Source: Candidatus Cloacimonadota bacterium | Lineage (GTDB): Bacteria; Cloacimonadota; Cloacimonadia; Cloacimonadales; TCS61 | DNA length: 47,341 nucleotides | Assembly: GCA_030592835.1 (NCBI GenBank) | Contig: JAUVIJ010000001.1 | Span: 1 to 47,341 of the forward strand | Reading direction: 5' to 3' | Part shown: piece by piece, positions 6,811-47,341 of the stretch | How positions within the stretch are numbered: position 1 is the stretch's first letter | Layout: every line of letters starts with the position of its first letter | Position numbers and translations under genes: made by a program | Notes under the pieces: generated by a model | The model's database searches: none | The model's input: the letters and a program-made list of their open reading frames with translations, nothing else | What the model was told of the DNA's origin: nothing

Positions 6811-7379
6811 GAAAATATATTCCTAATGTGTTGACTATATGCCGCTTTTTTCTGGTTCCCGTGTTTATCTGGCTAATTTTTTTCAGTCAGAGCAAATATG
6901 GTGTAATCTGGGCAACGGGTGTTTTTATTATTGCCAGTATAACCGATTATCTGGACGGTCTTCTTGCTAGAAAATTTGCCTATATAACCAATTTTGGCAA
7001 ACTGATGGATCCCCTTGCAGACAAACTTCTGGTTATCGCAGCCGTATTGGCTCTCACTATCAGGTTTCAGTATGTGGATTCCTTAGCTATCGGGATCATA
7101 ATTTTCAGAGAGGTTATGGTTTCCATTTTCAGAGAGATCTTTGCATCTAGAAAGATATTCATCCCTGCTAATATCTGGGGAAAGATCAAAACAGTTTTGC
7201 AGATGTTCGGCATCATTGTTATCCTGCTCTATCACAGCCTTTTAATTCTAACTAATCAGGCTATAGATCCCAATGGTTATTTGAAATCCGGAATTAATTA
7301 TTTTTTCTGGTTCATCGCTATTGTTACTCTTCTATCGGGTTTCAGTTATGTCTTTACTGTTTTCAGGAGAAAATATTGA
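6807..7379 (+). CDS. pgsA: CDP-diacylglycerol--glycerol-3-phosphate 3-phosphatidyltransferase (CDP-alcohol phosphatidyltransferase family)
   Basis: Motif DYLDGLLARKF...GKLMDPLADKLL (D-G-x2-A-R...G-x3-D-x3-D). ATG 6807 overlaps the upstream TGA (ATGA). Multi-TM protein. Confidence 0.8.
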   Translation: MRKYIPNVLTICRFFLVPVFIWLIFFSQSKYGVIWATGVFIIASITDYLDGLLARKFAYITNFGKLMDPLADKLLVIAAVLALTIRFQYVDSLAIGIIIFREVMVSIFREIFASRKIFIPANIWGKIKTVLQMFGIIVILLYHSLLILTNQAIDPNGYLKSGINYFFWFIAIVTLLSGFSYVFTVFRRKY

Positions 7380-27800: not shown

Positions 27801-29038
27801 GAACTTGTCAATCGTGTCTTTACCTGTTCAAAATTCAATCCTGGTTCTACCGAAAGAAGTAAACCGATTCCGGCTGAAACGAAGGGAGCGGACATGGAAG
27901 TTCCTGATTGTTCTTTATACAGATTATTTTCGGTAACATCGTACGAACTGATGATCTGAACACCGGGAGCTAACAGATCAAGTTGGGGTCCATAACTGGA
28001 GAAGTTTGCCCTGTTAAAGAAGCGATCTACCGAGCCGACAGCTATTGTAGTGGATAACTGTGCCGGATACATGATCCCGGGACCATAGGTATTGCCTGAA
28101 GACACTACGACGATACTGCCCAATTCGTAAGCATAATGGCAGGCATCGGCTATAATCTGGGAATAGTTTTGATCACCCCAACTGATGTTGATAACATCAG
28201 CTCCCATATCAGCAGCATAAATAATAGATGCAGCTGCATCGTCATCCTGGAGATATCCCAGACCCTCAATAGTTTTGAATCCGGCTCTGATGATCAGGAT
28301 ATCGATATTCCAACAGACACCGCATACACCCAGACCATTATTGGTATCAGCCCCGATTATACCTGCGAGATGGGTTCCATGATTAATATCATCCGTTGGA
28401 TCATTATCCTGTTCAGTGTAATCACCGAGTGCAATATCAGAAAGTTCGGGAGCATCGACGAAATCCCAACCTCTCCAATCATCGACATATCCGTTATTAT
28501 CATTATCAATACCATCATCTGGTATTTCAGCATCATTATAAAAAACATTATTCTGCACATCCGGATGATCGAAATGCAAACCGGAATCCACAAGACCAAT
28601 CAGGATCTGATCACTTCCAATCGTGTAATTCCAAGCCTCGGGTGCATTAGTATCATGATTGTTTTCCTGGTAAAGTCCCCAAAGTTCTCCGGTTACGAAA
28701 TAAGGATCATTTGGTAATTGGAACATCGTATTTATATAGTTAGGTTGAATATATTCTACACCCGCAAACTCAAGAGGTGCTATTTCTTCCCAGGAAATAT
28801 CATTGTTAAAAGTTATTACATAATACTGGTTATCATTTTTTTTTGTGATTGATTTAATACTTTTCAGTCCCTGAGACATCAGGAAACTATCGAAATCCTC
28901 AAGTCCAAAATTGCCCGAATCTACAGATCTGGTAGTGTTTGTCTTGACTATCAATTCCCGGGGGGAATATTCAAGACCATTTAAAAAAGAGATTATAATC
29001 AGCATTAGCAAGATGATAATCAATTTGGTCAATTTCAT
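24806..29038 (-). CDS. Giant secreted S8 (subtilisin-family) serine protease with I9-like propeptide, FG-GAP/VCBS-type repeats, Ig/FN3-like modules and T9SS C-terminal sorting domain
   Basis: Catalytic triad contexts VDSGLHFDHPD (Asp), HGTHLAGIIGA (His) and SGTSMSAPFVSAG (Ser), plus oxyanion SSGN. Repeats DIDGNGIMEF, DFDQDGNMDV, DFNGDGISEF and DLDGDGDEEV. CTD VYPNPFYPDE...IRIYDLPGDLV...GIYFYVV. GGGGGA upstream of the ATG. Confidence 0.85.
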   Translation of the reverse strand: MKLTKLIIILLMLIIISFLNGLEYSPRELIVKTNTTRSVDSGNFGLEDFDSFLMSQGLKSIKSITKKNDNQYYVITFNNDISWEEIAPLEFAGVEYIQPNYINTMFQLPNDPYFVTGELWGLYQENNHDTNAPEAWNYTIGSDQILIGLVDSGLHFDHPDVQNNVFYNDAEIPDDGIDNDNNGYVDDWRGWDFVDAPELSDIALGDYTEQDNDPTDDINHGTHLAGIIGADTNNGLGVCGVCWNIDILIIRAGFKTIEGLGYLQDDDAAASIIYAADMGADVINISWGDQNYSQIIADACHYAYELGSIVVVSSGNTYGPGIMYPAQLSTTIAVGSVDRFFNRANFSSYGPQLDLLAPGVQIISSYDVTENNLYKEQSGTSMSAPFVSAGIGLLLSVEPGLNFEQVKTRLTSSCRDIGDSGYDIEHGHGVLDLEAFLTNEEYPDFLIEFPSDFQGLNQSFDIIGTVMADNFSKYSIMYTDEELPFPGDWKDINYPHMNTPTYYYEQVENGILGHFDLEGVSSEFNKYQLRVEVMTCENGHYELRRTIFLDQTPPVQDFSLTGIMKRYDDEYVKYFLQTVYDEPVQLSASYVDINNNKYLVAFSNITDEIQMFNLPEPEVDYTGIELWAINQCGLEVVYSPEENNIPLPDEFISLDVNSFEYQTLGNEIIATRKHLDIDGNGIMEFLAQEIVGDEKILKIFEVSNRNLITKHIFDFELWPQDLGFTSEEDISLLGLSADIARLYVSEEGEMYPSTLLWSETNVYGGNFVDIDNDGIDEIAIIKNETDEMVTRRILAIYKRFGNTINRIYTIYNETETNLKNEFVNKIHVADFDQDGNMDVLTSDTDGDVIIYELYSINSEYEMKWQDRLPVPDAYYPTLVDFNGDGISEFCVGGFTRNYADPNKSYSFFKYYSWLGEDDQYGSIGYTAFDHVEGKNSIAVADLDGDGDEEVFLSLPPNSYVIDDVGGEIIPVWKGESTKTYQNIITAHSYSPENEAYIIVNTGTTDQLESILITKSELFTGPITPYNFLCSPLNEQTSHLQWNYEGLPYDYFNIYRKFGSNIILLDTTTEFEFTETGLSAGDTLYYQVSAVCGEFVPQESKPTLWKQVIPSYIPLLILIDMVSSNILELNFDQILNNGAINNLHYEINNGVGLPASVNFINEKRGVILTFNNGILPAEEYSIQITGVQGKTGVPFSDGSYPFLYKEDVDAPRILYSRVEDDGNVKVYFSEPIKTLQAENLSNYTLIPPSNDPDNGIIDLQYYSVMDSFYVNLYLIKNLEYSTKKYFLKIENVEDLNGNRISNNGNKSRFNLTDITNLKHMKVYPNPFYPDEYQELRFVNLPLGIEGSIRIYDLPGDLVFKDRLGPLTESELNNFYSWDGKNNAGNRVASGIYFYVVEMNKDHRKGKFAIIY

Positions 29039-30002: not shown

Positions 30003-33000
30003 CTATTTTTCAATAGCAAATTTTCTTTTCAATACACTCCCTTTTGCTTTAATCATTGCGAAATACATTCCCGAAGCCAGATTTCTGGCATCCAACTGAA
30101 TCCCGTTACGGATATAAGCTTCACAATATGATTTTTTTGTGTAAATAATATTACCAGCAATGTCAAATATTTTTATTTCAACATTTGAATTTACCGACGT
30201 CATTATCCTTATCGTTACTGTCTGAGACCATTCCTGACCATTGTAAATACTACTGTTATATACCGAACTAAGGGGATTGGGATAGATATAAGTTTCTTCC
30301 ACAACAAAGACTCCCTGCTGCAGATAATTATTCTCAGGCAGGTTCCCCAGCCAGGACGCTGTTCGCTGTAAATTTCCATATTCACATGTCCAAGACGTTA
30401 AAGCTGGTGATTGTGTTAATTTTTTTCTGAAAATCGAGCCATTATCACTGGAGATATAAATAGTGCTGTCAGATTCCGATATTACCGGATATTGCCTACT
30501 TATATTGGCATAAGCAAGAGGATAATCTCTTCTAATTTCATAATCATTATTGAGGAGATTGTTCCAGACCGCCAGTCGATTTCTGGACATGTTACCGATA
30601 ATTTCCAGGTTCCCGTCATTCTCCAGATCAATCGCCATGATGCCAGCCGCTTGATAAAGTGAATCAGGGGCTGAAACAGGCTGGCTCGGTTTACTAATAG
30701 AACCGTCTTTATCTATTATAATAAAATCATTTTCTCCGCCAATCAGAATGTCAAGATATCCGTTCCTATCCACATCAGCCAGTGATGGCATGGAAAAGGA
30801 ATCCATTTCCAGTTCAACCGGGAAATTATCCAAAAGATTCAGATTCTGGTCCAGGACATAGACAAGGGTGTCGGGAAAAGATGTCAGAAAGATGATCTCA
30901 TTTTCTTCGTCATTATTAATGTCAGCCAGAAATGTGGAATGGATAATTGTTTCAGGATCCATTACGGAAATGCTTATTACAGTGTATTCACTAGTTTCAA
31001 GATCGGTTTCTATAAGTTTGAAAACCGATTCCGAATCCTGTCCAAAATGATATATAGTTCCATTTTTCAGCATTAAATTTGAAACTATTTTCAAGCCTTG
31101 GAATTCAATTGGCTGGTATAAAATATAATCCTGATCAAAAACCTGGATCCTGCTGGCAAATTGATCTGTTCTATTCAAGGGCAGAAGTAATCTAAAAGTG
31201 CTGTTCTGGTCGGGATTAACAACCGGAGGTCCGGCCCATTCGGTTGCGAAAAAGGGTGGAAAGTACTCATAAGCTTCTTCCCCATTCAGGAAAAACAGAC
31301 CTGCATAGACATTTCCAGGTGCCTTTGTTGGGATAATGAATGTTCCGGTTACTTCATCGAACGCATAAAAATCAGCCAGGGAATCACTGTTTACCGGGTA
31401 ACCTTCTACAAGTTCGAAATTATCCCAGAGATAGAAATTCCCGTCAGGCATCGGGTAGAAAATTTCATTGTCTCCATCCTGATCAAGATCTACTACGGCT
31501 GCTGGATAGGGGTTTTCTCCTTCATAACCGGTGTTTAAGTTCCATTTAAAACGGACGGATATATTCATCAGGGAATCAGAAGCGCTGATATTGTAAATCT
31601 CCAATTGATTCCCACCGTAATAACTGTCGGCTATCGGTAAATGCGGTCCACTTTCACCCTCGGGATACATTTTGCCAAAATAAGTGTTGTTACCTTCTCT
31701 AAAAGCATCGAAAGGTGATCCCAGACTGTAGATATTTGTAGTAAAATCCAGATGCTGGATCCCATCGGCTTCTTCCAGATCGACTCCCTTATGAGAAGCA
31801 TTGCCGTTTACGGAATTGGATTCAAAATCAGGATCAAAATTAGCGTTAATTATATTTTCATCAATATGCCAGATCAAAAGACCGGAACCATCCTCCGGCT
31901 CATTTGGTCCACCCAGACCCGGACAGTAGAAATCCCATTCACATCCTTCGTATGTGTTTTCCATGAAGTTGAATTTGGGTTGTCCCGCATTGGGATGCCC
32001 TGGAGGATAAACATCCTGTTCTCCTGGAGGTAAAAGATGGAAAGTGAATGAAGGTTCACCGTTTGCCATGCTCCCATCCGGATTTTGTTGTCTGTTTTCC
32101 AAAAGAAAGTATTCACTGTCGGATATCTTAACCTGAATGAGTTTCGGAGTTTCGGTATCTTCTGCCAGGGGAAAGACAAGTTGCTGTTCTTCGATATAAT
32201 TGTCGATCTCTACTAAAAAATTTTCTTCCCAACCGAGATAATACCTGGACCAGGCACAAGGCAGGGGCGGCACAAAACCGTTGGCATTCCAGACACCCGT
32301 ACCCATAAGACCAAAATTTCCTATCCCGAAAGAAGCACCGTTGTCAGAATTGTTATCAAAAAGTGTGGGTAGTCCGATGGCATGACCTACCTGATGGCAA
32401 TAAACACCATAGATTCCATATACCGTATCCCCTAAATTGTTGTCGGGCTGCCATTCTGTTTCCGGGCAAATGACAAAATTTGTCAGGATAATTCCATCAT
32501 CTGTCTCTATCCCAATGAATTCTTCATTCTCCGGATCTAATCCTGCATTAAGTGATCTTCTGGTTATGAAAGTACTCCAGAGCTCATCCTCATTATTGCC
32601 AGTGATATCTGCTTCCTGACCTGCTCCCGAGTGGATGATTATAATTTCATCATATTCCGTAAAATCAATAACCGGGTCGGATAACTCAACGACTTCCACC
32701 ACAAATTCTGCTATTCTTTCAGTCCAGTTGTCATCATCCCCATAATAACCCATCTCATTGTCAACAGTGAAAACATCATTCCAGACAGTAAAATCTTCTG
32801 CTGTGATATTGTATACTCCATGTGAGACATCTCTGAAATAACCAGCAACATGAAACATCATTCTTTCAAAGAAGGTTTTATCATGAGCCAAGGAGTCGGG
32901 GTAGTCAGCGATCAGATCAAAGCCGACATCTGGAAAATCTACTCGCAGAACTAAAATATCCTCTGGTAACTCTCTCACTTGGTTTCGGGATAAAGGCATA

Positions 33001-33125
33001 TATTCCCGCGAGATCTGGTGATAATACTGCATTTCAGAAATACTTTTTGCGGGTACAGGTGGAACGGCAAAGATGTTATTTAAGGCTACAAACAGGATCA
33101 GGATCGTGAAAAGAATTCTACCCAT
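30003..33125 (-). CDS. M6 (immune inhibitor A)-like metalloprotease-domain protein with HQxxH in place of HExxH, FG-GAP-type repeats and T9SS C-terminal sorting domain
   Basis: M6-like blocks VLRVDFPD, IIIHSGAGQEA and CHQVGHAIGLPTLFD. The Gln245 codon is CAG (plus strand 32391-32393). Repeats DLDQDGDNEIF, DINNDEENEIIF, DVDRNGYLDIL and DLENDGNLEII. CTD IYPNPLSS...VEIKIFDIAGNII...GMYFAMI. AAGGAG upstream. Confidence 0.7.
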   Translation of the reverse strand: MGRILFTILILFVALNNIFAVPPVPAKSISEMQYYHQISREYMPLSRNQVRELPEDILVLRVDFPDVGFDLIADYPDSLAHDKTFFERMMFHVAGYFRDVSHGVYNITAEDFTVWNDVFTVDNEMGYYGDDDNWTERIAEFVVEVVELSDPVIDFTEYDEIIIIHSGAGQEADITGNNEDELWSTFITRRSLNAGLDPENEEFIGIETDDGIILTNFVICPETEWQPDNNLGDTVYGIYGVYCHQVGHAIGLPTLFDNNSDNGASFGIGNFGLMGTGVWNANGFVPPLPCAWSRYYLGWEENFLVEIDNYIEEQQLVFPLAEDTETPKLIQVKISDSEYFLLENRQQNPDGSMANGEPSFTFHLLPPGEQDVYPPGHPNAGQPKFNFMENTYEGCEWDFYCPGLGGPNEPEDGSGLLIWHIDENIINANFDPDFESNSVNGNASHKGVDLEEADGIQHLDFTTNIYSLGSPFDAFREGNNTYFGKMYPEGESGPHLPIADSYYGGNQLEIYNISASDSLMNISVRFKWNLNTGYEGENPYPAAVVDLDQDGDNEIFYPMPDGNFYLWDNFELVEGYPVNSDSLADFYAFDEVTGTFIIPTKAPGNVYAGLFFLNGEEAYEYFPPFFATEWAGPPVVNPDQNSTFRLLLPLNRTDQFASRIQVFDQDYILYQPIEFQGLKIVSNLMLKNGTIYHFGQDSESVFKLIETDLETSEYTVISISVMDPETIIHSTFLADINNDEENEIIFLTSFPDTLVYVLDQNLNLLDNFPVELEMDSFSMPSLADVDRNGYLDILIGGENDFIIIDKDGSISKPSQPVSAPDSLYQAAGIMAIDLENDGNLEIIGNMSRNRLAVWNNLLNNDYEIRRDYPLAYANISRQYPVISESDSTIYISSDNGSIFRKKLTQSPALTSWTCEYGNLQRTASWLGNLPENNYLQQGVFVVEETYIYPNPLSSVYNSSIYNGQEWSQTVTIRIMTSVNSNVEIKIFDIAGNIIYTKKSYCEAYIRNGIQLDARNLASGMYFAMIKAKGSVLKRKFAIEK

Positions 33126-36795: not shown

Positions 36796-38328
36796 ATGAA
36801 AATTTTTAAATATTACAACCTTTTCCTGTTGGTATTTTTTCTTACCCCTATTTTCATTCCTGCACTGATCGCTCAGGATTTCACTTTCTATTCTACTGCT
36901 GATATGAGGATATATGCCGGTTCCGGAATATATGATACTTCCAGTTATTTTCGCGGTGTCTGTGAAGCTATCGCTGATCTAGGGTCTGGAGATTTTATGA
37001 TTATTAATGGCGATCTTGATCCTCCTGAAGGAGTTAGTTGGACAATTGAGCAATATCTTGGTTCGGATTACGTCTGGTATCCTGTTACTGGAAATCATGA
37101 AGCAGAAACACCGGAAGATATGGTATGGATGAGAAACATCAATTCAGGAGGTAATTCTCTACCTAACGTCGTCAATATTGGTCCTCCGGGATGTGTTGAA
37201 ACAACCTTCTCTTTTGATTATAATAACTGCCATTTTATAATACTGAATCAGTATTTTGACGGAACCAGCGATGTCGGCACCAATGGTGATGTTGTCGATG
37301 CTCTTTATAACTGGCTGGTGCAGGATTTAGCACAAACAGAGAAGGAGCTGATATTCGTTATCGGTCATGAACCGGCCTACCCTCAACCGGATGAATTCAA
37401 CGGACGCGAAAGACATATGGATGACAGCCTTAATCAGCACCCAACCAATCGTGACAGGTTCTGGCAATTACTTTCATCTTCAGGAGTATATGCATATTTT
37501 TGCGGTCATACCCATAATTACAGTTCATATTACCGGGATGGGGTCTGGCAAATAGATGCAGGTCATGCACGGGGAATCGGTGATACCGGAGCACCCAGTA
37601 CTTTCATCAGAGTCAATATATCTGGCAATGATGTCTCAATGACTGTCTATCGTGATATACATGACGGTATTTATGATTACGATGATATAACAGAAGATAT
37701 CGCTCTTGCGGTCGAGATGTCAAGTTTAACCGCTGGTATGGATGGGAGTTTGCCCTATTTAAGCTGGACTACACAAAGCGAAACCAATAATATCGGTTGG
37801 TATATTTACAGGGAAGAGAGTGACCTTTTCCTTTCAAGTTTACAGTTGAACAATGAACTGATCCCTGGAGCTGGAACCACTTCCCAGCCAACAAACTATC
37901 TCTATTATGATCCTGCTGAGACCTTTATTGGTCAGACCTACTGGTATTGGATAGAAAGCCTTGCAAATGACGGACAGACAGGTTTATTCGGTCCTGTTTC
38001 TTTAATCATTGGAGATGATCAGCCTTACGAGGATCCACCTTTAGTCCCTGTTGAATACGGTCTGTTACAGAATAGTCCAAATCCCTTTAATCCGGAGACA
38101 ATGATATACTATCGACTGGAAGTGGAAGATGATGTCATGGTCGAGATCTACAATGTGAAAGGTGAACGGGTCCGTATATTTACAGAGGGAGCAATGCTTC
38201 CCGGCCTACATAACCTCTCCTGGAATGGTGATGCCATGGATGGTAATCCAGTTGACAGCGGAATATACTTTTGTTATCTGAGAGTTAGAGATTATACCAA
38301 TTCAATGAAAATGTTGCTGCTCAAATGA
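36796..38328 (+). CDS. Secreted calcineurin-like metallophosphoesterase with T9SS C-terminal sorting domain
   Basis: Metallophosphoesterase motifs GDLD, GNHE (PVTGNHEAE), GHEP and GHTHNY. CTD QNSPNPFNPET...VEIYNVKGERV...GIYFCYLRV. GGGAGG upstream. Confidence 0.75.
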   Translation: MKIFKYYNLFLLVFFLTPIFIPALIAQDFTFYSTADMRIYAGSGIYDTSSYFRGVCEAIADLGSGDFMIINGDLDPPEGVSWTIEQYLGSDYVWYPVTGNHEAETPEDMVWMRNINSGGNSLPNVVNIGPPGCVETTFSFDYNNCHFIILNQYFDGTSDVGTNGDVVDALYNWLVQDLAQTEKELIFVIGHEPAYPQPDEFNGRERHMDDSLNQHPTNRDRFWQLLSSSGVYAYFCGHTHNYSSYYRDGVWQIDAGHARGIGDTGAPSTFIRVNISGNDVSMTVYRDIHDGIYDYDDITEDIALAVEMSSLTAGMDGSLPYLSWTTQSETNNIGWYIYREESDLFLSSLQLNNELIPGAGTTSQPTNYLYYDPAETFIGQTYWYWIESLANDGQTGLFGPVSLIIGDDQPYEDPPLVPVEYGLLQNSPNPFNPETMIYYRLEVEDDVMVEIYNVKGERVRIFTEGAMLPGLHNLSWNGDAMDGNPVDSGIYFCYLRVRDYTNSMKMLLLK

Positions 38329-38510
38329 AATGTTAAATTCATAAAAAGACCGGAGTTTAACCAATTATATTAAGAGTGAAATCTACTGCAAATTGCCCGC
38401 AAAGAAATTGTTAAGTTTAACTTAAAATTGACAAGGGATGTATCCATATTTTTTTTGTTAGTTTCGATAAATATTATTCAGTATTGATTAGGATAAATGG
38501 GGAGTTGAAC

Positions 38511-39716
38511 ATGAGAATATTAATTGTATTACTACTGGTTCTGGGTTCAGTATCATTGTGGACTAATTCTATTTTTTCCTTCGAAGGTATGCCTATTCAA
38601 TATTACGGAAATGATGTTTATGGAATGGGAATGGGCGAGACAGGTCTGGGTGATCTGCACAGAATCAATACAAACTATTCCAATCCGGCAAATATTGTAA
38701 CAGCTAATAAGGTCATATTCTCCACCGCTCTGGGAATGGGTTATATGTGGTATCTTGACGAATATGATAGAGGATACCGTGATGATGGACTATGTTTACC
38801 TTACTTTAGCATTGTAGTACCCATCGGAAATCATAAATTTGCCTTCAGTTTTAACTCAACATTATCGGGAAATGTGGAAAACCAGCAGTTACGCCAATGG
38901 GAAGACATAAACTATACTGAAATAAACAGGATCAGTTCAGAAATATATAAAGCTGGTATTATCTATGGTCTTAAAAATAAATATTTGAATTTTGGATTAA
39001 GCATTGATTATTATATTGGTCACCGAATCCACTACTGGATGCTTGATTTTGACGGTATTTATCTTATCGATACCAAATATGAAATTGATAAATCCTTTAA
39101 TAATCCTGGCTTTTCACTGGGGGTTAATAAAAAAATCGGGGCTTTTTCCTTTGGTTTAACCTACTCTTCAAAAGTTGATCTTAGTGGAGATACCGAGTTC
39201 AAATATGGTCATCCTCCCTATACTGATACCCTATCAACCGATGTGGAGGACTTGTTTCAAATACCGGAACAGGTAGGATTTGGAGCCAGTCTTGAAATTC
39301 TCGAAAGATACAAAACTTCTCTTGATCTAATTTATGAAAACTGGAAAGATACTGATCTTTATGATAAAAGTACTATCAAAGTTGCGTTGGGGATTTCTTA
39401 TGATCCACTGAGCGGATACGGAAAATGGTATGAACAAATTCCTATACGGGCTGGCGGTTATCTCCGTGAACTGCCTTTTGAGAAGAATAACAAACCAATT
39501 TACGAAAAAGCTGTTACTCTGGGAACTTCTATTCCTTTGAAAACTCCTAGTAAAAAAATCGACCTCGGTTTCAAATACCTATACCGAGGGAACTTGAATG
39601 ATAATGGTGTTAGAGATAAAAGTATAATGTTCTATATTGGAATAACCGGTTTTGATATTTTTGCCAAAAGACTGAAAAAGATAGATCATCGGGATATTCC
39701 TGAGGCAGAAAAATAA
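38511..39716 (+). CDS. PorV/FadL-superfamily-like outer-membrane beta-barrel protein (hypothetical)
   Basis: GGGGAG precedes ATG 38511. Signal peptide. N-terminal YGMGMGETGLGDL....YSNPANIV (GG...NPA pattern). About 400 aa with alternating beta pattern. Follows a T9SS cargo gene. Confidence 0.5.
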   Translation: MRILIVLLLVLGSVSLWTNSIFSFEGMPIQYYGNDVYGMGMGETGLGDLHRINTNYSNPANIVTANKVIFSTALGMGYMWYLDEYDRGYRDDGLCLPYFSIVVPIGNHKFAFSFNSTLSGNVENQQLRQWEDINYTEINRISSEIYKAGIIYGLKNKYLNFGLSIDYYIGHRIHYWMLDFDGIYLIDTKYEIDKSFNNPGFSLGVNKKIGAFSFGLTYSSKVDLSGDTEFKYGHPPYTDTLSTDVEDLFQIPEQVGFGASLEILERYKTSLDLIYENWKDTDLYDKSTIKVALGISYDPLSGYGKWYEQIPIRAGGYLRELPFEKNNKPIYEKAVTLGTSIPLKTPSKKIDLGFKYLYRGNLNDNGVRDKSIMFYIGITGFDIFAKRLKKIDHRDIPEAEK

Positions 39717-39723
39717 TATTTAT

Positions 39724-41280
39724 ATGAATTTCAAATGGCAGATATTCGAAAAATCAGATCTGACAATATTCGAACAGATCAAGACAGGAAGACGAATTAC
39801 AGAAGATTTTCTTAAATCCTCCTTTTCTGATCTTCCCGACACATTCCTGATGACGGATCTGGACCTGGCTTAGACGAGGATCATCCAAGCAGTTAAGAAT
39901 AATGAGAAAATCATCATTTTCGGTCACGATGATCTCGATGGGATCACTTCCACATATATTCTCTTCGATTTTTTGAATAAAATAGGCTCCCAGAAACATT
40001 TTTATTACATCCCTAATCGTATAATTGACAATCATGGTATGCAGAAAAATTTCGTTAAAAGAGTAACCAAAGAGAGTTTTGATCTGGTCATAACTGTTGA
40101 TGGGGGTATTTCAGATTTTTCCGCAGTCAATAAAATAAACTCTTTTGATTGTGATATAATAATTACAGATCATCATCTGGTTCAGACTCATGTCCCCGAT
40201 GCCTTTGCAGTTGTCAATCCCAAGCAGAAAGAATGTAGCTATCCATATAAAATGCTGGCTGGTGTTGGTGTTGTTTATATGCTAATAATCAATCTGGCGG
40301 AAAAGCTCTCTATCGAAATCGATAAAAATTACCTGTTCTGGGTAACAATTGGCAGTGTTGCCGATAAAGTACCGATGACAGGAGTCAACAGAATATTGAT
40401 AAAGAAAGTTCTGGATGAGTGGTTTAGCTTTAATGACAGTACTTTGAAAATCATTATCAATCAGAATCTCTATCCAATAAACCATACTACCCGGATGGGG
40501 ATCATCAGACATACTATAAGGCTTCTTTCTAACGGAAGAAAACCAGATGGAGAAAATCTGATTCTGGAATTACTATTAAAACCGATCGGAGAGAAAGAAA
40601 AGATTTTCCAGAAATTATATAAAAACCTCAACCTTTCTGAAAGACGGATCAATAAACTACGAACAGTTTTGAATGAAATTGCTGCTTCAATCGATTCCAA
40701 TTATTATCTTTATTACGATAACTCCGGGAAAATTCCTTCCGATCTTCTTGGATTCAGCGCCTCATATTTATCCAGCTATCTTAAGATACCCGTTATCATG
40801 CTTGTTGACAAGAGGGAGATTGTAACCTGTGAGGCTCGTTGTACAGACGGTTTTAATCTGATAAATGCCTTTGAATATTGCGGCGAGACATTGATTCAAT
40901 ATGGTGGTCATACAAAAGCAGCAGGTTTCACGATTAAACCAGAAAATGTGCCACAATTTAAAAAGAAATTTACCGATTTCGTGGCTCTGAACGCTCAGAG
41001 CATCACCGATAATAGAAAAATCCATGTCGATGCTGTTTTATATCCGGAAAATTTAGATTCTTTTATCGATTTTCTCCAAACTGACTTCCATTTTATGCAG
41101 CCTTATGGAGAAGAGAATCCATCTCCTCATTACCTTTTAAGAAATTACTCTAAGGATACTTTCACGGAAAATCTGAAAATAGAAAATTTGAATCTACTGT
41201 CAGAAAATTCCAATTATGATCTAATCCTTAAATTCAACGGGTCCTGTCTGCATATTGTTGACTATAATTTGATTCAATAA
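39724..41280 (+). pseudogene. recJ: Single-stranded-DNA-specific exonuclease RecJ interrupted by one in-frame TAG (39871-39873): pseudogene, assembly error or read-through candidate
   Basis: Hand translation from ATG 39724 gives MNFKWQ...FSDLPDTFLMTDLDLA-TAG-TRIIQAVKNNEKIIIFGHDDLDGITS... in one frame (39724 and the track ORF at 39973 share a frame). DHH motif I (GHDDLDG, 39922-39942) lies after the TAG but before the first canonical restart codon (TTG 39973). Downstream motifs ITDHH and GGHTKAAGF (DHHA1) are intact. Confidence 0.75.
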
Positions 41281-41292
41281 TCCGGAGTAAAA

Positions 41293-41463
41293 ATGATTAT
41301 CAATAGAGATCTTTGCGATATTTGTGGTTCTTGTGTAGCAGTTTGCCCTGCCGATGCAATTGAAATCTCTGAATTCAAAGTAACTATCCTGGATGAAGTT
41401 TGTATCAATTGTCTGAAATGTATACAGGTATGTCCGATAAAAGCGATCAAAGAGGGGAATTAA
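41293..41463 (+). CDS. 2x[4Fe-4S] ferredoxin (56 aa, not in the ORF track)
   Basis: Hand translation: MIINRDLCDICGSCVAVCPADAIEISEFKVTILDEVCINCLKCIQVCPIKAIKEGN. Contains two CxxCxxCxxxCP motifs. GGAG upstream. Stop TAA at 41461-41463, 2 nt before the next ATG. Confidence 0.85.
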   Translation: MIINRDLCDICGSCVAVCPADAIEISEFKVTILDEVCINCLKCIQVCPIKAIKEGN

Positions 41464-41465
41464 TA

Positions 41466-42653
41466 ATGATATCCTCTAAATATGATGTTGTTGTTATCGG
41501 TTCCGGACCGACTGGTAGTGTGACCGCCAGATATGCGGCAGAGAATGGGGCTTCGGTTTTAATTCTGGAAAGAGATCGTGAACCTGGAATCCCTGTAAGA
41601 TGCGCAGAAGGAGTTTCACACAATGGAATCGCTCCTTTTATAGATATTGATCAACGCTGGATAGCTTCCCGGATTGAAACCGCTAAACTGACAGCTCCTA
41701 ACGGTGAATCTGCTTATCTCTACAATAATGGTATCGGTTACGTTCTGGAAAGACGTCTTTTTGATAATGCTTTAGCCGAACTTGCTTGCAGGAATGGAGC
41801 TCAGTTGCTTACCAAAGCAAATGCTACTGGATTAGTCTGGAAAAATAACAGAATAAGCGGCGTTAAATATACACATCTCGGACAGAAAAAAGAAGTTCTT
41901 TGTGATCTGGTTATTGGTGCAGATGGTGTGGAATCACGGGTTGGTCGCTGGGCCGGGATCAAGACAGACGTTGCCTTAAAAGATATAGATACTTGTGTTC
42001 AATACACAATGGTAGATATAAAAGTAGAAAAGGATACGATTGAATTCTTTTTTGGAACTGACATTTCACCGGGCGGATATGTCTGGATCTTCCCTAAATC
42101 AGAAGATACTGCGAATGTCGGAATCGGGATATCAGGACACATGGCAACTGAGAAAGGCCCGAAATATTATCTGGACAATTTCGTGGAAAGACATTTCCCA
42201 AAAGGTAAAATAACATGCAGGGTTTATGGTGGAGTAACCACGGCAAAAACGCTTAAGAAAATAGTGAAAAATAATATAATGCTTGTCGGTGATGCCGCCC
42301 GGCAGGTAAATCCTCTGACCGGTGGTGGTATTGCCCAGGGCATGCATGCAGCAAGTATTGCAGGAAAAATAGCTGCTGAAGCAGTAAAAAGGGAAGATTT
42401 CAGCTCCCAATTTCTTAAAAAATATCGAAAAGAATGGGACATCCGACTGGGCAATATTCAAAATACCATGTACTCCATGAAAGAAAAGGTCATAAATATG
42501 TCCAACGATCGTTTCAACAGGTTAGTCAAGGTGTGCCAGGGTATCCCACGAGATGAATTTAGCCTGAAGAAATTGTTCACTGAAGCTGTTAAGGGAGACC
42601 CAAAACTGATTTTAGACATTGCCAAAGCCTTTGTTGTATATAAAATGAAATAA
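41466..42653 (+). CDS. Geranylgeranyl reductase family flavoprotein, archaeal digeranylgeranylglycerophospholipid-reductase-like
   Basis: FAD fingerprint YDVVVIGSGPTGS, conserved catalytic-site PVRCAEG (Cys46), YVLER, GADGVESRVGRWAG, PGGYVWIFPK...ANVGIG and LVGDAARQVNPLTGGGI. Start at ATG 41466 (the track start at 41400 overlaps the ferredoxin gene). Confidence 0.85.
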   Translation: MISSKYDVVVIGSGPTGSVTARYAAENGASVLILERDREPGIPVRCAEGVSHNGIAPFIDIDQRWIASRIETAKLTAPNGESAYLYNNGIGYVLERRLFDNALAELACRNGAQLLTKANATGLVWKNNRISGVKYTHLGQKKEVLCDLVIGADGVESRVGRWAGIKTDVALKDIDTCVQYTMVDIKVEKDTIEFFFGTDISPGGYVWIFPKSEDTANVGIGISGHMATEKGPKYYLDNFVERHFPKGKITCRVYGGVTTAKTLKKIVKNNIMLVGDAARQVNPLTGGGIAQGMHAASIAGKIAAEAVKREDFSSQFLKKYRKEWDIRLGNIQNTMYSMKEKVINMSNDRFNRLVKVCQGIPRDEFSLKKLFTEAVKGDPKLILDIAKAFVVYKMK

Positions 42654-43280
42654 ATGGAAATGCATAAAAAGGAAATTGCCAGGAAATCTATTCATCTCAG
42701 TTCTTTCTTAATTCCTCTATCCTACCGATATTTACTTCCTTTGCTATTTACCGGATCAATAAAATCCATACCAACGAGAACTCACCAGAAAATCGCAGTG
42801 CTGGTATTATCCTTATTAGCAGTTATCTCTCTAATTATAGAAATACTGAGAACGGAGAATAACTCTTTCAGAAAACTGTTTGAGAAAACCTTGGGAAAGA
42901 TGATGAGAGTTCATGAAAAAAAAAACATCACCGGGGCAACTTTTCTTCTGGTCTCTTCTATTGTCTGCATCTCTTTTTTTCCTTACAATATTGCTTTTGT
43001 CTGCCTTAGTTTTCTGGTTATAGGGGATACAATGGCAGCCATTATCGGAATGTCTGTGGGTAAAAGGAAGATTGTGGGAACTGATAAAAGCGTGGAGGGA
43101 AGTCTTGCCTGTTTTATCAGCACGTTTATATTTTCACTTTTTTTTCTGAATCCAATCCTGGCTTTAACCGGGTCTTTCACAGCCACTCTGGCTGAATTAA
43201 CCTCACTCGGTATTGATGATAATTTTAAAATTCCCGTTATTTCCGGCGCAACTATGTCGGTAGCCAGTATGTTTATTTAA
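42654..43280 (+). CDS. Polyprenol kinase family membrane protein (COG0170: dolichol kinase SEC59 / phytol kinase VTE5-like, CTP-dependent)
   Basis: 208 aa, about 6 TM. IGDTMAAIIGMSVGKRK, DKSVEGSLACF and C-terminal GIDDNFKIPV match the dolichol/phytol kinase branch of the CTP-transferase superfamily rather than CdsA or CarS. The ATG directly abuts the upstream TAA. Confidence 0.65.
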   Translation: MEMHKKEIARKSIHLSSFLIPLSYRYLLPLLFTGSIKSIPTRTHQKIAVLVLSLLAVISLIIEILRTENNSFRKLFEKTLGKMMRVHEKKNITGATFLLVSSIVCISFFPYNIAFVCLSFLVIGDTMAAIIGMSVGKRKIVGTDKSVEGSLACFISTFIFSLFFLNPILALTGSFTATLAELTSLGIDDNFKIPVISGATMSVASMFI

Positions 43281-43294
43281 GAAGGGAGCGAAAT

Positions 43295-44227
43295 ATGAAA
43301 TTAAGCTTTGTAATCCCTGTATATAATGAAGAAGAGAGCCTGGATATTCTTCACCGGGAAATCCTGGCAAATATAAGCTCTTCAGATTATGAGATCATTT
43401 TTATAGACGATGGCAGTACCGATAACAGTTTTTCCATTCTTAAAGAACTTTCTGATAAAGATAAAAATGTGAAAGTTGTGAAGTTCAGAAAAAATTTTGG
43501 GAAAGCCGCTGGTTTACAGACCGGGTTCGAAATAGCATCCGGAGATTACATTTTCACTCTGGATGGAGACTTACAGGACAACCCTTCCGAAATACCCCGT
43601 TTTCTGAAGAAACTGGGCGAAGGTTATGATCTGGTCATCGGTTGGAAGAAGAAAAGGAAGGATCCTATATCTAAAACAATTCCATCCAAACTTTTTAACA
43701 TAATTACCTCTATAGTATTCAAACTGAAACTCCATGATTATAATAGCGGTTTCAAAGCATACAGAAAGGAAGTAATCAAGGAATTGGATATCTATGGCGA
43801 GATGCACAGATATATACCGGCATTGGCAAAAGCAAAGGGATTTCGGGTTACAGAGATACCTGTAGAACACAGAATCAGGAAATATGGAAGATCTAAATAT
43901 GGAAAGGAAAGATATCTGCGAGGATTTCTGGATCTCCTGACCGTTAAACTGGTCACAGGCTATATCCACAGTCCTCTTTATCTATTCGGAAGGATCGGCA
44001 TTTTTTTCTCTTTGGTCGGTTTTATTCTGGGAGTTTATCTCTCAGTGATGAAATTTGTGTATAATCACCCTTTAGCTAATCGCCCACTCTTATTTCTTGC
44101 CGTGCTTTTGATCATGGTCGGGCTTCAGTTCTTTTCTATTGGACTTCTGGGTGAATTGATAACAAATCAAAATCGGAAAGCTAATCGAAATACAAATATT
44201 TCTATTACCAAGACAATAAACACATAG
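43295..44227 (+). CDS. GT2 polyprenyl-phosphate hexosyltransferase (GtrB/ArnC/DPM1-like) with two C-terminal TM helices
   Basis: SFVIPVYNEEESL, IFIDDGSTDNS and TLDGDLQD (DxD). Interface helices, then two TMs (LYLFGRIGIFFSLVGFILGVYL; LLFLAVLLIMVGLQFFSIGLLGE), the hallmark architecture of polyisoprenyl-phosphate glycosyltransferases. AGGGAG upstream. Confidence 0.8.
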   Translation: MKLSFVIPVYNEEESLDILHREILANISSSDYEIIFIDDGSTDNSFSILKELSDKDKNVKVVKFRKNFGKAAGLQTGFEIASGDYIFTLDGDLQDNPSEIPRFLKKLGEGYDLVIGWKKKRKDPISKTIPSKLFNIITSIVFKLKLHDYNSGFKAYRKEVIKELDIYGEMHRYIPALAKAKGFRVTEIPVEHRIRKYGRSKYGKERYLRGFLDLLTVKLVTGYIHSPLYLFGRIGIFFSLVGFILGVYLSVMKFVYNHPLANRPLLFLAVLLIMVGLQFFSIGLLGELITNQNRKANRNTNISITKTINT

Positions 44228-44243
44228 TAATAAAAAGGGCTTT

Positions 44244-45608
44244 ATGGAATACCTGTCTCAGTTTCAGAATATGATGAAAGCAGCAGGGATGAGCGAACTT
44301 GTTATCAAATCTTTTTTTCAATACTATCTTCAAGTTCGGGAAGGAAAATTCGGTTTTATCCCTGAAAACGATATCATGTTACCCGATACTGATAATATTT
44401 TTAGTTATGAAAAACTCAGCCCGGGAACCAACAGCCATCTGGACAAGCTGGCCGTGATCAAGCTCAATGGTGGTTTGGGAACCAGCATGGGTTTAAAAAA
44501 AGCCAAGTCTCTACTTATGGTTAAGGATGGTTTAAATTTTCTGGATATAATCAGTAAACAGATCCTTTATTTAAGAGATCGTACCAGGATTAATATCCCT
44601 CTGATTTTCATGCATAGCTTCAATACCCGGGAAGATTCCTTACAACATCTTTCCCAATATGAAAACTTGAAAATCAAAGATCTGCCCTTCGATTTTGTTC
44701 AGAATAAATTCCCCAGAATATATCAGAAAGACCTCTCTCCAGTGATGATGAAAGATTCCACTCTTAACTGGAGCCCTCCCGGACATGGAGAAATATATCT
44801 GGTTCTACATTTAAGTGGAATTCTTAATCTCCTTCTTGATCACGGTATTGAATACCTGTTCATCTCCAATTCAGATAATCTGGGAGCAGTCGTAGACAGG
44901 CGAATACTTGACTTTATTATTTCCAGGAAAATCCCTTTCCTGATGGAAGTTTGTAAACGTACTGAGCAGGATAAAAAGGGGGGACATCTTGCCCAAAATG
45001 GAAGCGGTCAGTTGATTTTAAGAGAAGTGGCTCAGTGCCAAAGCGAAGATCTTGCTGCATTCCAGGATATAAAAAAATACAAGTATTTTAATACTAATAA
45101 TCTCTGGATAAACCTGAAAGTTTTGAAACAATCTCTTGTAAATTATAATTATCTGTTGCCACTACCACTTATACTTAATGCTAAAACCGTTGGAACTGGG
45201 AAAGTGTTCCAGATTGAATCAGCAATGGGTGCTGCCATCGGTATATTCCCGGGTTCTAAAGCACTGGTTGTGGATAGAAATCGTTTTATCCCTGTAAAAA
45301 AAACCGACGACCTTCTTTTAATAAGATCTGATGCCTATTCCCTATCCGACAATTCATCCCTGAAATTGCATCCGGATCTTACAACCCCACCCTTGGTAAA
45401 ACTCGATCCTGAATATTACAATACTCTTGAACAACTGGAAGAACATTTTGCGGAAGGTGTTCCTTCTCTAATAAAATGTCAACAATTGGAAATTCAGGGT
45501 GATGTATCTTTCGGTAAAAATATTCAATTCCATGGTAACGTGAAATTGAACACTAAAAACCCACTCCTACTGGAAAATCAAATTATATCCGGATCACTTG
45601 AGCTATAG
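44244..45608 (+). CDS. UTP--glucose-1-phosphate uridylyltransferase of the eukaryote-type UDPGP family
   Basis: 454 aa. VIKLNGGLGTSMGLKKAKSLL...DGLNFLD matches the UGPase-type signature (LNGGLGTSMG) rather than bacterial GalU or the UAP (GGQGTRLG) type. SNSDNLGA, KGGHL and FNTNNLW blocks follow. Confidence 0.75.
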   Translation: MEYLSQFQNMMKAAGMSELVIKSFFQYYLQVREGKFGFIPENDIMLPDTDNIFSYEKLSPGTNSHLDKLAVIKLNGGLGTSMGLKKAKSLLMVKDGLNFLDIISKQILYLRDRTRINIPLIFMHSFNTREDSLQHLSQYENLKIKDLPFDFVQNKFPRIYQKDLSPVMMKDSTLNWSPPGHGEIYLVLHLSGILNLLLDHGIEYLFISNSDNLGAVVDRRILDFIISRKIPFLMEVCKRTEQDKKGGHLAQNGSGQLILREVAQCQSEDLAAFQDIKKYKYFNTNNLWINLKVLKQSLVNYNYLLPLPLILNAKTVGTGKVFQIESAMGAAIGIFPGSKALVVDRNRFIPVKKTDDLLLIRSDAYSLSDNSSLKLHPDLTTPPLVKLDPEYYNTLEQLEEHFAEGVPSLIKCQQLEIQGDVSFGKNIQFHGNVKLNTKNPLLLENQIISGSLEL

Positions 45609-45856
45609 AAAGTTATTCTCATAACTTCTTTGTTATTGAACCTAGATAATACGATAGAACTGTGTAAATGCGTCAATAAGCCTTAGGTTTATAAATCTTT
45701 TATATGTGAGTGATTCACAAAATTATTATCTGAATATCTTTATGATATGCACATTCCGAATGCTTTCGAAATTAAACCATCCCCCTATAAAATATTACTG
45801 CTCTTCAATATACCTTTATTGCATTATCTGGGTTGAGCATAATAAACAAATTTTTA

Positions 45857-45885
45857 TTGACTTTACACAATTACAATTTTATTTT
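45857..45885 (+). promoter_or_regulatory. Putative sigma70-like promoter for the sensor kinase gene
   Basis: TTGACT (45857-45862), 17-nt spacer, TATTTT (45880-45885), 35 nt upstream of ATG 45921. Confidence 0.3.
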
Positions 45886-45920
45886 TTTCTTAATCGCGTG
45901 TTCCATAAAGGGAGTCGATT

Positions 45921-47341
45921 ATGAACAAGACAATATTTATAGCCGAAGATGATATTGAATTACTCATGAGTTATAAGCTGATCTTTCAACAATACAACTC
46001 ACTGGCATCTGATGAAGAACCCTACAATGTTGAACTTTTTGAGGATGGGGATATTTTATACAATGCTTTTCGTAAGGTATATAAAGAAGAGAGACAGGTC
46101 CCTTTATGTATTCTGGATATAAGGATGCCGAATTTAAGCGGATTCGATACAGCGGAAAAAATCAGAAAAATAGATCCCAAAGTCATCGTAATCTTTGTTA
46201 CTGGCTTCAATGATAAATCTCCCCGGGAAATCAGGGAATCTTTACAGCACGACTATTACTATATTAGAAAACCCTTTATGAAGGATGAAATTTTATCAAT
46301 AACAGATTCTCTTATTAAAAACTGGAACAAAACGGAAGAGTTAATCAGATATAATGATGAGATACAGCAAAGAACTACCGAACTCAATAAAAGCCGTGAA
46401 AAATTCAAGCATTTGACCGATAATCTGAAAAAAAATTACTTTTTCTATACTCATGACACTGAAAGAAAATATCTTTATGTCAGTCCTTCTGTAAAAAATG
46501 TTCTGGGTTATGAAATAAAAGAATATAAAACAAAAATTCCCGATTGCTTTACAGATAACCCGATTAACAAAACTGGCTTAAAGTTGACTGATTTGTCAAT
46601 TAAGGGAAAGCAACAACCTACTTTCGAGGTGGAAATATATCATAAAAATGGAGAAATACGTAATCTGGAAATTTCAGAATTCCCTATTTTTAACGCTGAT
46701 GGAAATGTCACTGTGATCGAAGGAATGGCTCATGATGTTACCTTCCAGAAACAGGCAGAAAAGCTGCAGGCTGTTCTTTACAAGATTTCCAATGCAGTAA
46801 ACACGATAGCAGATGTGGAAGAATTATTCCTTTATATCCAGACATCCCTCGGGGAGATTATAGACACCAAAAACTTCTACATTGCTTTATATAATGAAGA
46901 GGAAAATACAATTTCACTGCCATACCTAGTTGATGAAAAAGATAAGTTCAAGTCCATACCGATCAGAAATACTTTCACCAGTTATGTTATCAAAACCGGA
47001 CAATCATTACTGGCAAACAGGGAAACCATGAAAAAACTTATCGCATCCGGGGAAACGGGACGGGTAGGAACTCCTGCTGAAATCTGGTTGGGAGTACCTT
47101 TGAAAACAAGGGGAGAAATTATTGGAGTCGTTGCTGTTCAGAGTTATGATAATCCCGACCTTTATGATGACAAAGACAAAAGCCTCCTTGAATTTGTTTC
47201 AGATCAGGTTGCCCTGGTAATCGAACGAAAAAAAAATGAAATTGAGTTGAAAGAAGCAAAAGAAGCCGCAGAGGATGCGGCTCGTGCAAAAGCTAATTTC
47301 CTGGCTTCTATGAGTCATGAGATTAGAACCCCAATGAATGG
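45921..47341 (+). CDS. Hybrid sensor histidine kinase, N-terminal receiver (REC)-PAS-GAF-HisKA, 3' end outside the window (not in the ORF track)
   Basis: Hand translation from ATG 45921 (AGGGAG at 45909-45914) is open to the window end. REC: [34 protein letters not shown]-like: [14 protein letters not shown]...GMAHDVT. GAF-like: [22 protein letters not shown]. HisKA H-box [14 protein letters not shown] (His codon 47316-47318). Confidence 0.85.

Follow-up and report, generated by a model that had tools for sequence, protein, structure and literature searches.

Does a bacterium that encodes an archaeal-type geranylgeranyl reductase (GGR) also encode a ferredoxin dedicated to that enzyme? The question is raised by a stretch of 47,341 nucleotides (nt) from a Candidatus Cloacimonadota bacterium (assembly GCA_030592835.1, contig JAUVIJ010000001.1, positions 1 to 47,341 of the forward strand), referred to here as the window, in which a gene for a small ferredoxin lies directly upstream of a GGR gene. 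Taking the evidence as a whole, we think it likely that these two genes specify a dedicated ferredoxin:GGR module of euryarchaeal origin that saturates an isoprenoid lipid. The features at the core of the locus are listed below.

41284–41287, + strand: GGAG, Shine-Dalgarno-like, 5 nt before the ferredoxin ATG (direct reading)
41293–41463, + strand: ferredoxin gene, ATG start, 56 amino acids (aa), clostridial type, two CxxCxxCxxxCP motifs
41452–41457, + strand: GAGGGG, Shine-Dalgarno-like for GGR, within the last ferredoxin codons and 8 nt before the ATG at 41466
41466–42653, + strand: GGR gene, 395 aa, a flavoprotein of the archaeal digeranylgeranylglycerophospholipid-reductase type

The ferredoxin and GGR genes are present or absent together

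The window was compared with 18 related loci from GTDB species representatives (one genome per species) and with two divergent loci (L029 and L030). The closest GGR relatives, found among GTDB contigs and in a protein collection, are 64–72% identical to the GGR of the window and come almost entirely from Candidatus Cloacimonadota, including Ca. Tenebribacter and Ca. Stygibacter. All 18 related loci have a ferredoxin gene with both cysteine motifs directly upstream of GGR, as do the two divergent loci, in which GGR identity falls to 56–60%. The adjacency, whose recurrence in related bacterial genomes the initial annotation had proposed as a check, is thus seen in 20 of 20 loci. The wider gene order is likewise constant, and in 18/18 related loci it reads BamG-like, RecJ-like (DHH), ferredoxin, GGR, a 208-aa membrane protein of putative lipid-kinase type, and a GT2 glycosyltransferase.

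Four Cloacimonadota loci without GGR (L031–L034), which were found through homologues of the 208-aa protein and include a 2.27-Mb contig of GCA_900198705.1, show the same BamG-like, RecJ-like, kinase-type and GT2 genes in unchanged order. The gap between the RecJ-like and kinase-type genes is only 6–31 nt in these loci, the kinase-type protein has 195 or 196 aa, and tblastn of the four loci gave no trace of either ferredoxin or GGR. The pair is a clean two-gene insertion/deletion in a fixed chromosomal slot, present or absent as a whole. Of the in-silico evidence, this joint behavior speaks most strongly for a ferredoxin that belongs with GGR rather than serving as a general carrier.

Three observations concern the provenance of individual sequences. 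A locus labelled Armatimonadota (L014) has the full Cloacimonadota-type cluster of ferredoxin, GGR, kinase-type, GT2 and UDP-sugar pyrophosphorylase (UDPGP) genes with a GGR identity of 67%, and a protein labelled Bacteroidetes (P0057) is a GGR with 66% identity; these labels likely reflect mis-binning or mislabelling and not independent transfers. The metagenome-assembled genome (MAG) JAOZPK01 has two different contigs (L005 and L008), each with a whole ferredoxin–GGR–kinase–GT2 cluster, which suggests a mixed-strain bin or a duplication.

The small reading frame is a selected ferredoxin gene

The 56-aa translation is MIINRDLCDICGSCVAVCPADAIEISEFKVTILDEVCINCLKCIQVCPIKAIKEGN, with cysteines at positions 8, 11, 14 and 18 (followed by P19) and at 37, 40, 43 and 47 (followed by P48); the stop codon, TAA, occupies 41461–41463. 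Direct reading confirms the two CxxCxxCxxxCP motifs and the GGAG ribosome-binding site described in the initial annotation, and a GGAG at a similar distance precedes the ferredoxin gene in most orthologous loci. The protein matches Pfam families Fer4_10 (E=6e-14; 52 bits, cut-off 25.5) and Fer4 (E=2e-13). The profile of the family aligns end to end with the 55-aa clostridial ferredoxins 1CLF, 1FCA and 1FDN (E=1e-12 to 5e-11) and also matches the repeats of methanogen polyferredoxins; the protein itself stands alone at 56 aa with no other domain. All eight cysteines are invariant across 14 aligned sequences, three of them archaeal, and from its motifs the protein is predicted to bind two [4Fe-4S] clusters.

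Selection on the gene was assessed with 16 orthologues, each of exactly 56 codons and all distinct at the nucleotide level. It is purifying, with a ratio of nonsynonymous to synonymous variation (pN/pS) of 0.17 (mean pN 0.118, mean pS 0.71), and synonymous sites are close to saturation. Of the 56 codons, 54 vary at position 3 and 18 at position 2, and the other two frames across the gene contain between 4 and 11 stops. The Pfam matches, the conservation of every cysteine and the pN/pS ratio all uphold the earlier description of the small open reading frame (ORF) as an unambiguous ferredoxin, and by its pattern of conservation it is a genuine, selected gene. The gene had also been described as unannotated. 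That is correct for the ORF track used at the time, which had a cut-off of 60 aa, but not for the public gene calls, which contain the exact protein (P0121, from the NCBI record of this contig).

We note that the same class of gene has been passed over elsewhere. At positions 7831–8004 of L029, and in L025, the Logan copy of the Methanobacterium lacus locus, an intact ferredoxin ORF of 55–57 aa lies uncalled upstream of GGR. Small ferredoxins linked to GGR are overlooked in some public gene calls.

The genes are tightly joined and GGR starts at 41466

The ferredoxin stop is separated from the GGR ATG at 41466 by 2 nt, as the initial annotation had stated, and the putative ribosome-binding site of GGR lies inside the ferredoxin gene. 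The orthologues have GAGGAAGGTGA at the position of GAGGGG, encoded by the conserved ferredoxin C-terminus, ...EEGE. In the 18 related loci the ferredoxin stop either overlaps the GGR start or is no more than 2 nt away; overlap with the GGR ATG is found in most of them, TAATG being the commonest junction, and the stop and start of L029 and L030 similarly overlap or abut. A promoter and terminator scan of 38300–47341 gave counts at the chance level (29 promoter-like matches against 31.7 expected and six terminator-like matches against 6.5), with no above-chance signal between ferredoxin and GGR, and the scan is uninformative as to operon boundaries. We read the two genes as one module, probably coupled in translation and presumably cotranscribed.

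The ORF track had assigned GGR a longer product, which would include the following segment.

41400–41465, + strand: spurious N-terminal extension of GGR from a TTG at 41400, in a different frame from the ferredoxin gene that it overlaps

In the window, 23 codons of open GGR frame do precede the ATG. In the orthologous loci, however, the frame is closed by a stop 0–6 codons upstream of the ATG in 18/18 cases, and GGR homologues are mostly 395–397 aa long; the public call on this contig is the 395-aa product beginning at 41466 (P0001). A start at TTG 41400 is therefore rejected, in agreement with the earlier view of it as an artefact, and the extension is an accident of this one sequence.

The reductase belongs to the archaeal GGR family

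The GGR matches PF22578 (GGR_cat; E=2.5e-29, 101.4 bits, cut-off 27) and TIGR02032 (227.3 bits, cut-off 158.8). Its best match of solved structure is the digeranylgeranylglycerophospholipid reductase (GGR) of Thermoplasma acidophilum, 3OZ2 (E=1.6e-75), with which it aligns over nearly its whole length, 361 residues being aligned at 39% identity. The motifs aligned with 3OZ2 include VVVIGSGPTGS, which is the GxGxxG of the fold that binds flavin adenine dinucleotide (FAD), as well as GYVWIFPKSEDTANVGIG and LVGDAARQVNPLTGGGI. The catalytic-cysteine motif is PVRCAEG in the window and PVRCGEG in 3OZ2, GYVWIFPK..ANVGIG carries the YxWxFP motif and matches 3OZ2, and GDAAR..TGGGI is common to both. 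Retention of the PVRCAEG and GDAA...TGGGI blocks, first remarked in the initial annotation, thus holds against a solved structure.

Archaeal relatives and probable origin of the module

Outside the Cloacimonadota, the nearest GGRs recovered are archaeal, with 34–45% identity, and come from Thermoplasmata, a Methanofastidiosia-like MAG classed as 'Methanomicrobia' and an unclassified archaeon. All of these archaeal genes for which sequence is available upstream have a small two-cluster ferredoxin that overlaps the GGR start or ends no more than 11 nt away from it. A cultured methanogen, M. lacus, encodes a 55-aa Fer4 protein whose gene lies 24 nt before that of GGR, and in Ca. Methanofastidiosum the two genes overlap by 4 nt. 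The archaeal style of the pairing, as it had been described, is therefore borne out by homologous ferredoxins directly upstream of homologous GGRs in several archaeal groups. Alignment with the GGR-adjacent ferredoxins of methanogens, which had been suggested as a check, is compatible with this: the window ferredoxin retains all eight cysteines and is 36–46% identical to those of Thermoplasmata, Methanofastidiosia-like archaea, M. lacus and the unclassified archaeon, these being uncharacterised proteins of a kind so short that its members are difficult to distinguish. Ferredoxin and GGR are the sole genes common to the window cluster and the archaeal loci. When the archaeal GGR of locus L021 served as query for homologues, the best 120 matches came from Methanofastidiosia, Theionarchaea and Methanobacteriales, with no Methanosarcina among them.

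In a neighbour-joining tree the Cloacimonadota GGRs form a clade beside those of T. acidophilum and other Thermoplasmata, within the euryarchaeal GGRs; the Cloacimonadota side also includes one uncultured-bacterium sequence with a cupin gene and no ferredoxin upstream (L023). Most likely, to judge from the tree and the gene orders, a Cloacimonadota lineage acquired the ferredoxin–GGR module from a Thermoplasmata-like member of the Euryarchaeota, and the module was inserted between the RecJ-like gene and a lipid-kinase/glycosyltransferase operon.

In M. lacus (CP002551.1; L026, 4347–5210), a gene for a UbiA-family prenyltransferase adjoins the ferredoxin–GGR pair on the opposite strand. It is a candidate synthase of digeranylgeranylglyceryl phosphate (DGGGP), which would fit a membrane-lipid role of the archaeal pair. 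No UbiA-type neighbour was found beside the pair in the bacterial loci.

Comparison with known systems

Two archaeal pairs have been studied by experiment. In Methanosarcina acetivorans, the GGR (MA1484) is reported to saturate a diether lipid in Escherichia coli only together with the ferredoxin encoded upstream of it, MA1485, and saturated lipid is reported to be produced in that host mainly under anaerobic conditions (Isobe et al. 2014, as relayed in PMC4244643, PMC10821996 and PMC12042123). This precedent had been cited in the initial annotation and is confirmed by the literature; the case of Thermococcus kodakarensis is even better documented. There, the gene for ferredoxin Fd-2 (TK1087) immediately precedes that for GGR (TK1088), and the two are cotranscribed; of three ferredoxins, Fd-2 alone copurifies with GGR, and it resisted deletion (Burkhart et al. 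2019, PMC6401487). According to a review, genes for 4Fe-4S proteins also lie beside the GGRs of Archaeoglobus fulgidus and T. acidophilum.

In M. acetivorans and in the window alike, a small ferredoxin gene immediately precedes the gene of an FAD-dependent GGR in the same orientation, and the two systems share gene order and GGR family (PF22578, TIGR02032). They differ in that the host here is a bacterium, and the GGR of the window groups nearer to Thermoplasmata than to the sampled methanogen GGRs; MA1484 and MA1485 are likened to it by description. The T. kodakarensis pair is the model for the dedicated ferredoxin channel into lipid saturation that we propose, although it has interaction data whereas the bacterial pair is known from its genes. 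Furthermore, T. kodakarensis is a hyperthermophilic archaeon whose whole membrane is GGR-dependent, whereas in Cloacimonadota archaeal-type lipids would be at most one component beside fatty-acid lipids. The enzyme of T. acidophilum shares the GxGxxG, PVRC(G/A)EG, YxWxFP and GDAAR..TGGGI motifs with that of the window but is reported to use NADPH, and one review passage places the 4Fe-4S gene of its locus downstream. By gene content and order, the window pair is a bacterial case of a known archaeal two-gene redox unit, and not a new kind of system.

Lipid genes of the same phylum have been described, and they include the same GGR. The Cloacimonadota synthases of geranylgeranylglyceryl phosphate (GGGP) and DGGGP are functional and yield an unsaturated archaeol-type lipid in E. 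coli without GGR (Villanueva et al. 2021, PMC7852524); the strain, which carries both synthases together with crtE and araM, produces PG-archaeol containing 8 double bonds. In a 2025 survey of 40 genomes, GGR (K17830) and DGGGP synthase are each present in 18/19 genomes of clade B and both are absent in the other clade, and pyruvate:ferredoxin/flavodoxin oxidoreductase is present in 38/40 (PMC12590816). These two articles and their searchable supplementary text make no mention of a ferredoxin beside GGR, of the insertion site or of linkage to kinase, GT2 and UDPGP genes, and targeted full-text literature searches gave nothing further on a ferredoxin partner of a bacterial GGR. Because the archaeal-type GGR of Cloacimonadota is already published, the novelty is smaller than the initial annotation implied; what is added here is the ferredoxin partner, the strict linkage with its joint gain or loss, and the conserved neighbourhood.

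Proposed mechanism and substrate

We propose that fermentative enzymes that reduce ferredoxin, such as pyruvate:ferredoxin oxidoreductase, would charge the 56-aa protein, which would hand low-potential electrons singly to the FAD of GGR; the reduced flavin and the cysteine of PVRCAEG would then hydrogenate C=C bonds of geranylgeranyl groups. The likeliest substrates would be DGGGP-type ether lipids made by the GGGP and DGGGP synthases of the phylum. The electron transfer from ferredoxin to GGR, the electron source and the identity of the substrate are steps that we infer from the genes and their relatives. Provided that the pair is functional, we lean slightly towards DGGGP-type ether lipids, because the distribution of GGR follows that of DGGGP synthase, whereas the kinase-type and GT2 genes are found whether or not GGR is present.

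Several points weigh against a dedicated ether-lipid module of euryarchaeal origin. There is no GGGP synthase or UbiA-type DGGGP synthase gene in the window, and a direct physical link of the pair to ether-lipid genes is accordingly rejected for this contig. In addition, the genes in close linkage downstream suggest another lipid context, as described below. The ferredoxin sequence is of the ordinary clostridial type with no GGR-specific mark, and the similarity to archaeal GGR-linked ferredoxins carries the limits of such short proteins mentioned above. Bootstrap support for the Thermoplasmata affinity of the GGR is modest (57–73%). The GGR scores far below the cut-offs of the equivalog models NF041160, NF041080 and NF041385 (283.5 against 780 bits, 185.1 against 580 and 113.9 against 700, the first being the Thermoplasmatales model), and it is best called an archaeal-type member of the GGR family and not a DGGGP-lipid-reductase equivalog, the equivalog models assigning it no substrate. 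Finally, some archaeal GGRs do without a specific ferredoxin: that of T. acidophilum is reported to use NADPH, and that of Sulfolobus acidocaldarius works in E. coli with no such partner.

Downstream genes and alternative explanations

Three genes follow GGR on the same strand.

42654–43280, + strand: 208-aa polytopic membrane protein, putatively of the SEC59/DGK1/VTE5 type (CTP-dependent isoprenoid-alcohol/diacylglycerol kinase), with its ATG directly after the GGR stop
43295–44227, + strand: GT2 glycosyltransferase of the polyprenyl-phosphate sugar synthase type (ArnC/PgfS/AglJ-like), PF00535 E=2.5e-37
44244–45608, + strand: UDP-sugar pyrophosphorylase (UDPGP family), 454 aa, PF01704 E=8.6e-132

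The kinase-type gene lies downstream of GGR, and the order ferredoxin, GGR, kinase-type, GT2 is kept, in 20/20 related loci; spacers in the window are 0–16 nt. A UDPGP gene is downstream in every Cloacimonadota-type locus whose sequence reaches that far, except L029; 19 of the 20 related loci have one, as does the window. The GT2 protein scores E=2.2e-57 against the NCBIfam model for ArnC, 2.1e-49 against PgfS and 5.3e-28 against AglJ, all under the equivalog cut-offs.

The 208-aa protein is harder to place. The copy in the window has no Pfam or NCBIfam match, and its orthologue in L001 matches PF01148 (CTP_transf_1) weakly (E=6.6e-4). Homologues are named in databases as dolichol kinase, phytol kinase, SEC59/DGK1/VTE5 family or phosphatidate cytidylyltransferase. 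The family has a conserved motif, GDTxAAxxGxxxGKxK..KSxEG..AE..DDNxKxP, whose GDTxAAxxG..GKxK..KSxEG..DDN elements we take to fit VTE5/SEC59. A profile search of the PDB returned CdsA (E=0.38), and an AlphaFold2 (AF2) model with a pLDDT of 93 had CdsA, 4Q2G, as its only Foldseek match (probability 0.98, TM 0.33). The protein was also considered as a 'missing' CDP-archaeol synthase; this gained no support, as there is no CarS match in sequence or fold and the similarity to CdsA is weak.

In the GGR-less loci, MacB/FtsX ABC genes come after GT2 in place of UDPGP (L031, 4468–7555, and L032–L034). An adjacent UDPGP gene thus appears to track the GGR-bearing lineage, L029 being the exception as a locus with the pair and no adjacent UDPGP.

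The alternative that survives best, which we nevertheless think unlikely, keeps the redox pair and changes its substrate. GGR would saturate an isoprenoid alcohol in free form, or else a polyprenyl (dolichol-like) carrier or a diether alcohol; the product would be phosphorylated by the kinase-type protein and then glycosylated by GT2 with a UDP-sugar derived from UDPGP, and the five genes would be one pathway for a saturated glycosyl-phospho-isoprenoid. The tight spacing and the constancy of the gene order speak for it, as do the best matches of GT2 to polyprenyl-phosphate sugar synthases, the strong UDPGP assignment and the naming of 208-aa homologues as dolichol or phytol kinases. Archaeal enzymes of the GGR family are moreover reported to reduce isoprene units of dolichol phosphate, and GGRs are described in the literature as promiscuous toward geranylgeranyl diphosphate, geranylgeraniol and farnesol. 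However, the kinase-type and GT2 genes occupy the same place in loci without ferredoxin and GGR, so that their position next to the pair may be due simply to where it was inserted; across genomes, GGR goes with DGGGP synthase instead; the searches and the model just described give the kinase assignment weak backing; and archaeal ferredoxin–GGR loci occur without these neighbours. We rank this explanation second because the kinase–GT2 backbone predates or outlives the ferredoxin–GGR insertion.

A further reading is that the archaeal module was captured at the front of a pre-existing bacterial kinase–GT2 operon, which in most GGR-bearing loci also has UDPGP, and now feeds it, giving a saturated dolichol- or phytanyl-like glycosyl-phospho-isoprenoid or a saturated diether alcohol that is both phosphorylated and glycosylated. 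We offer this tentatively and consider it rather doubtful. If true, it would constitute a bacterial, ferredoxin-driven analogue of the archaeal and eukaryotic route in which a carrier lipid is reduced, phosphorylated and glycosylated.

It is much less probable that the ferredoxin is a general housekeeping carrier that merely lies beside a GGR using NAD(P)H or any reductant. Such a view would suit the generic clostridial-type two-[4Fe-4S] sequence, the reported use of NADPH by the T. acidophilum GGR (the closest solved relative), the activity of the S. acidocaldarius GGR in E. coli without a cognate ferredoxin, and the bacterial homologue in L023 with its upstream cupin in place of a ferredoxin. 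A housekeeping gene would be expected to stay when GGR is lost, whereas the ferredoxin is absent from the syntenic locus exactly where GGR is absent. The overlap of stop and start persists in lineages that have diverged almost to saturation at synonymous sites, the same arrangement recurs in several archaeal orders, and specificity has been shown experimentally in two archaea.

An artefact, either a spurious small ORF with a 417-aa GGR from TTG 41400 or archaeal DNA mis-assembled into a bacterial contig, deserves almost no weight: the open frame upstream of GGR in the window and a GC content of 0.41–0.42 over GGR against about 0.36 in the flanks might suggest one, but orthologues close the extension in 18/18 cases, the ferredoxin frame is under purifying selection while the other frames are stop-rich, the GC of GGR lies inside the window's own range of 0.32–0.43 with no clear foreign-DNA signature in its composition, and the same bacterial flanks (BamG-like and RecJ-like on one side, kinase-type and GT2 on the other) are found around the pair in some 20 assemblies made independently. 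The closed extension, the selection and the shared flanks together exclude a spurious ORF or a chimera.

Other features of the window

The remainder of the window is an ordinary bacterial chromosome of the FCB-group type, with genes for BamG-like and PorP/SprF proteins, proteins with type IX secretion system (T9SS) tails, EF-P, GreA, TyrRS, glutamine synthetase, pgsA and a member of the farnesyl diphosphate (FPP)/geranylgeranyl diphosphate (GGPP) synthase family. The following features bear on the locus or stand out.

3343–4236: short-chain prenyl diphosphate synthase, NF045485 FPP synthase subfamily, 315 bits (cut-off 275)
6768–7379: pgsA-type CDP-alcohol phosphatidyltransferase
24806–29038 and 30003–33125, − strand: two large ORFs of 1410 and 1040 aa, flanking a PorP/SprF-like gene
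39724–41280, + strand: RecJ-like DHH/DHHA1 gene at the upstream edge of the insertion site; Pfam DHH/DHHA1, TIGR00644 recJ E=3e-68

On the model for the GGPP synthase CrtE, the prenyl diphosphate synthase reaches 291 bits, short of the cut-off. Together with the pgsA-type gene it could serve isoprenoid or ether-lipid synthesis, at a distance of about 35 kb from GGR. The 1410- and 1040-aa ORFs are probably T9SS-related surface proteins.

The RecJ-like gene has an in-frame TAG at 39871–39873 where its orthologues have a sense codon, and owing to this the ORF track starts the gene only at TTG 39973 (435 aa). It aligns through the TAG, in one frame from 39724, to full-length orthologues of 508–533 aa. 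The TAG may mark a nonsense mutation or a pseudogene, or it may stem from an error in sequencing.

Neither Rfam nor tRNA scanning of the complete window gave a match. The segment 45700–47341 has a GC content of 0.32–0.34 and contains no complete ORF of at least 100 aa, nor any tRNA or Rfam match; a gene that extends beyond the window may begin there.

Implications

The interpretation offered in the initial annotation is supported as far as sequence analysis reaches, and the GGR of the window presumably depends on its ferredoxin. Among bacteria, the ability to make archaeal-type ether lipids is best supported for Cloacimonadota, and this bears on the 'lipid divide'. The product of their GGGP and DGGGP synthases in E. 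coli was fully unsaturated because no reductase system was supplied, and the conserved, co-inherited ferredoxin–GGR unit indicates what to co-express, anaerobically, for testing the synthesis of saturated archaeol-type lipids. For annotation, some gene callers miss ferredoxins of 50–60 aa, and naive ORF tracks substitute a false N-terminal extension of GGR. A two-gene module in a fixed chromosomal slot is also a convenient marker for timing the entry of archaeal genes into the phylum. The proposed module predicts that lipid saturation would draw on the low-potential ferredoxin pool of these fermenters, and whether they saturate archaeal-type lipids, and with which electrons, is now a directly testable question.

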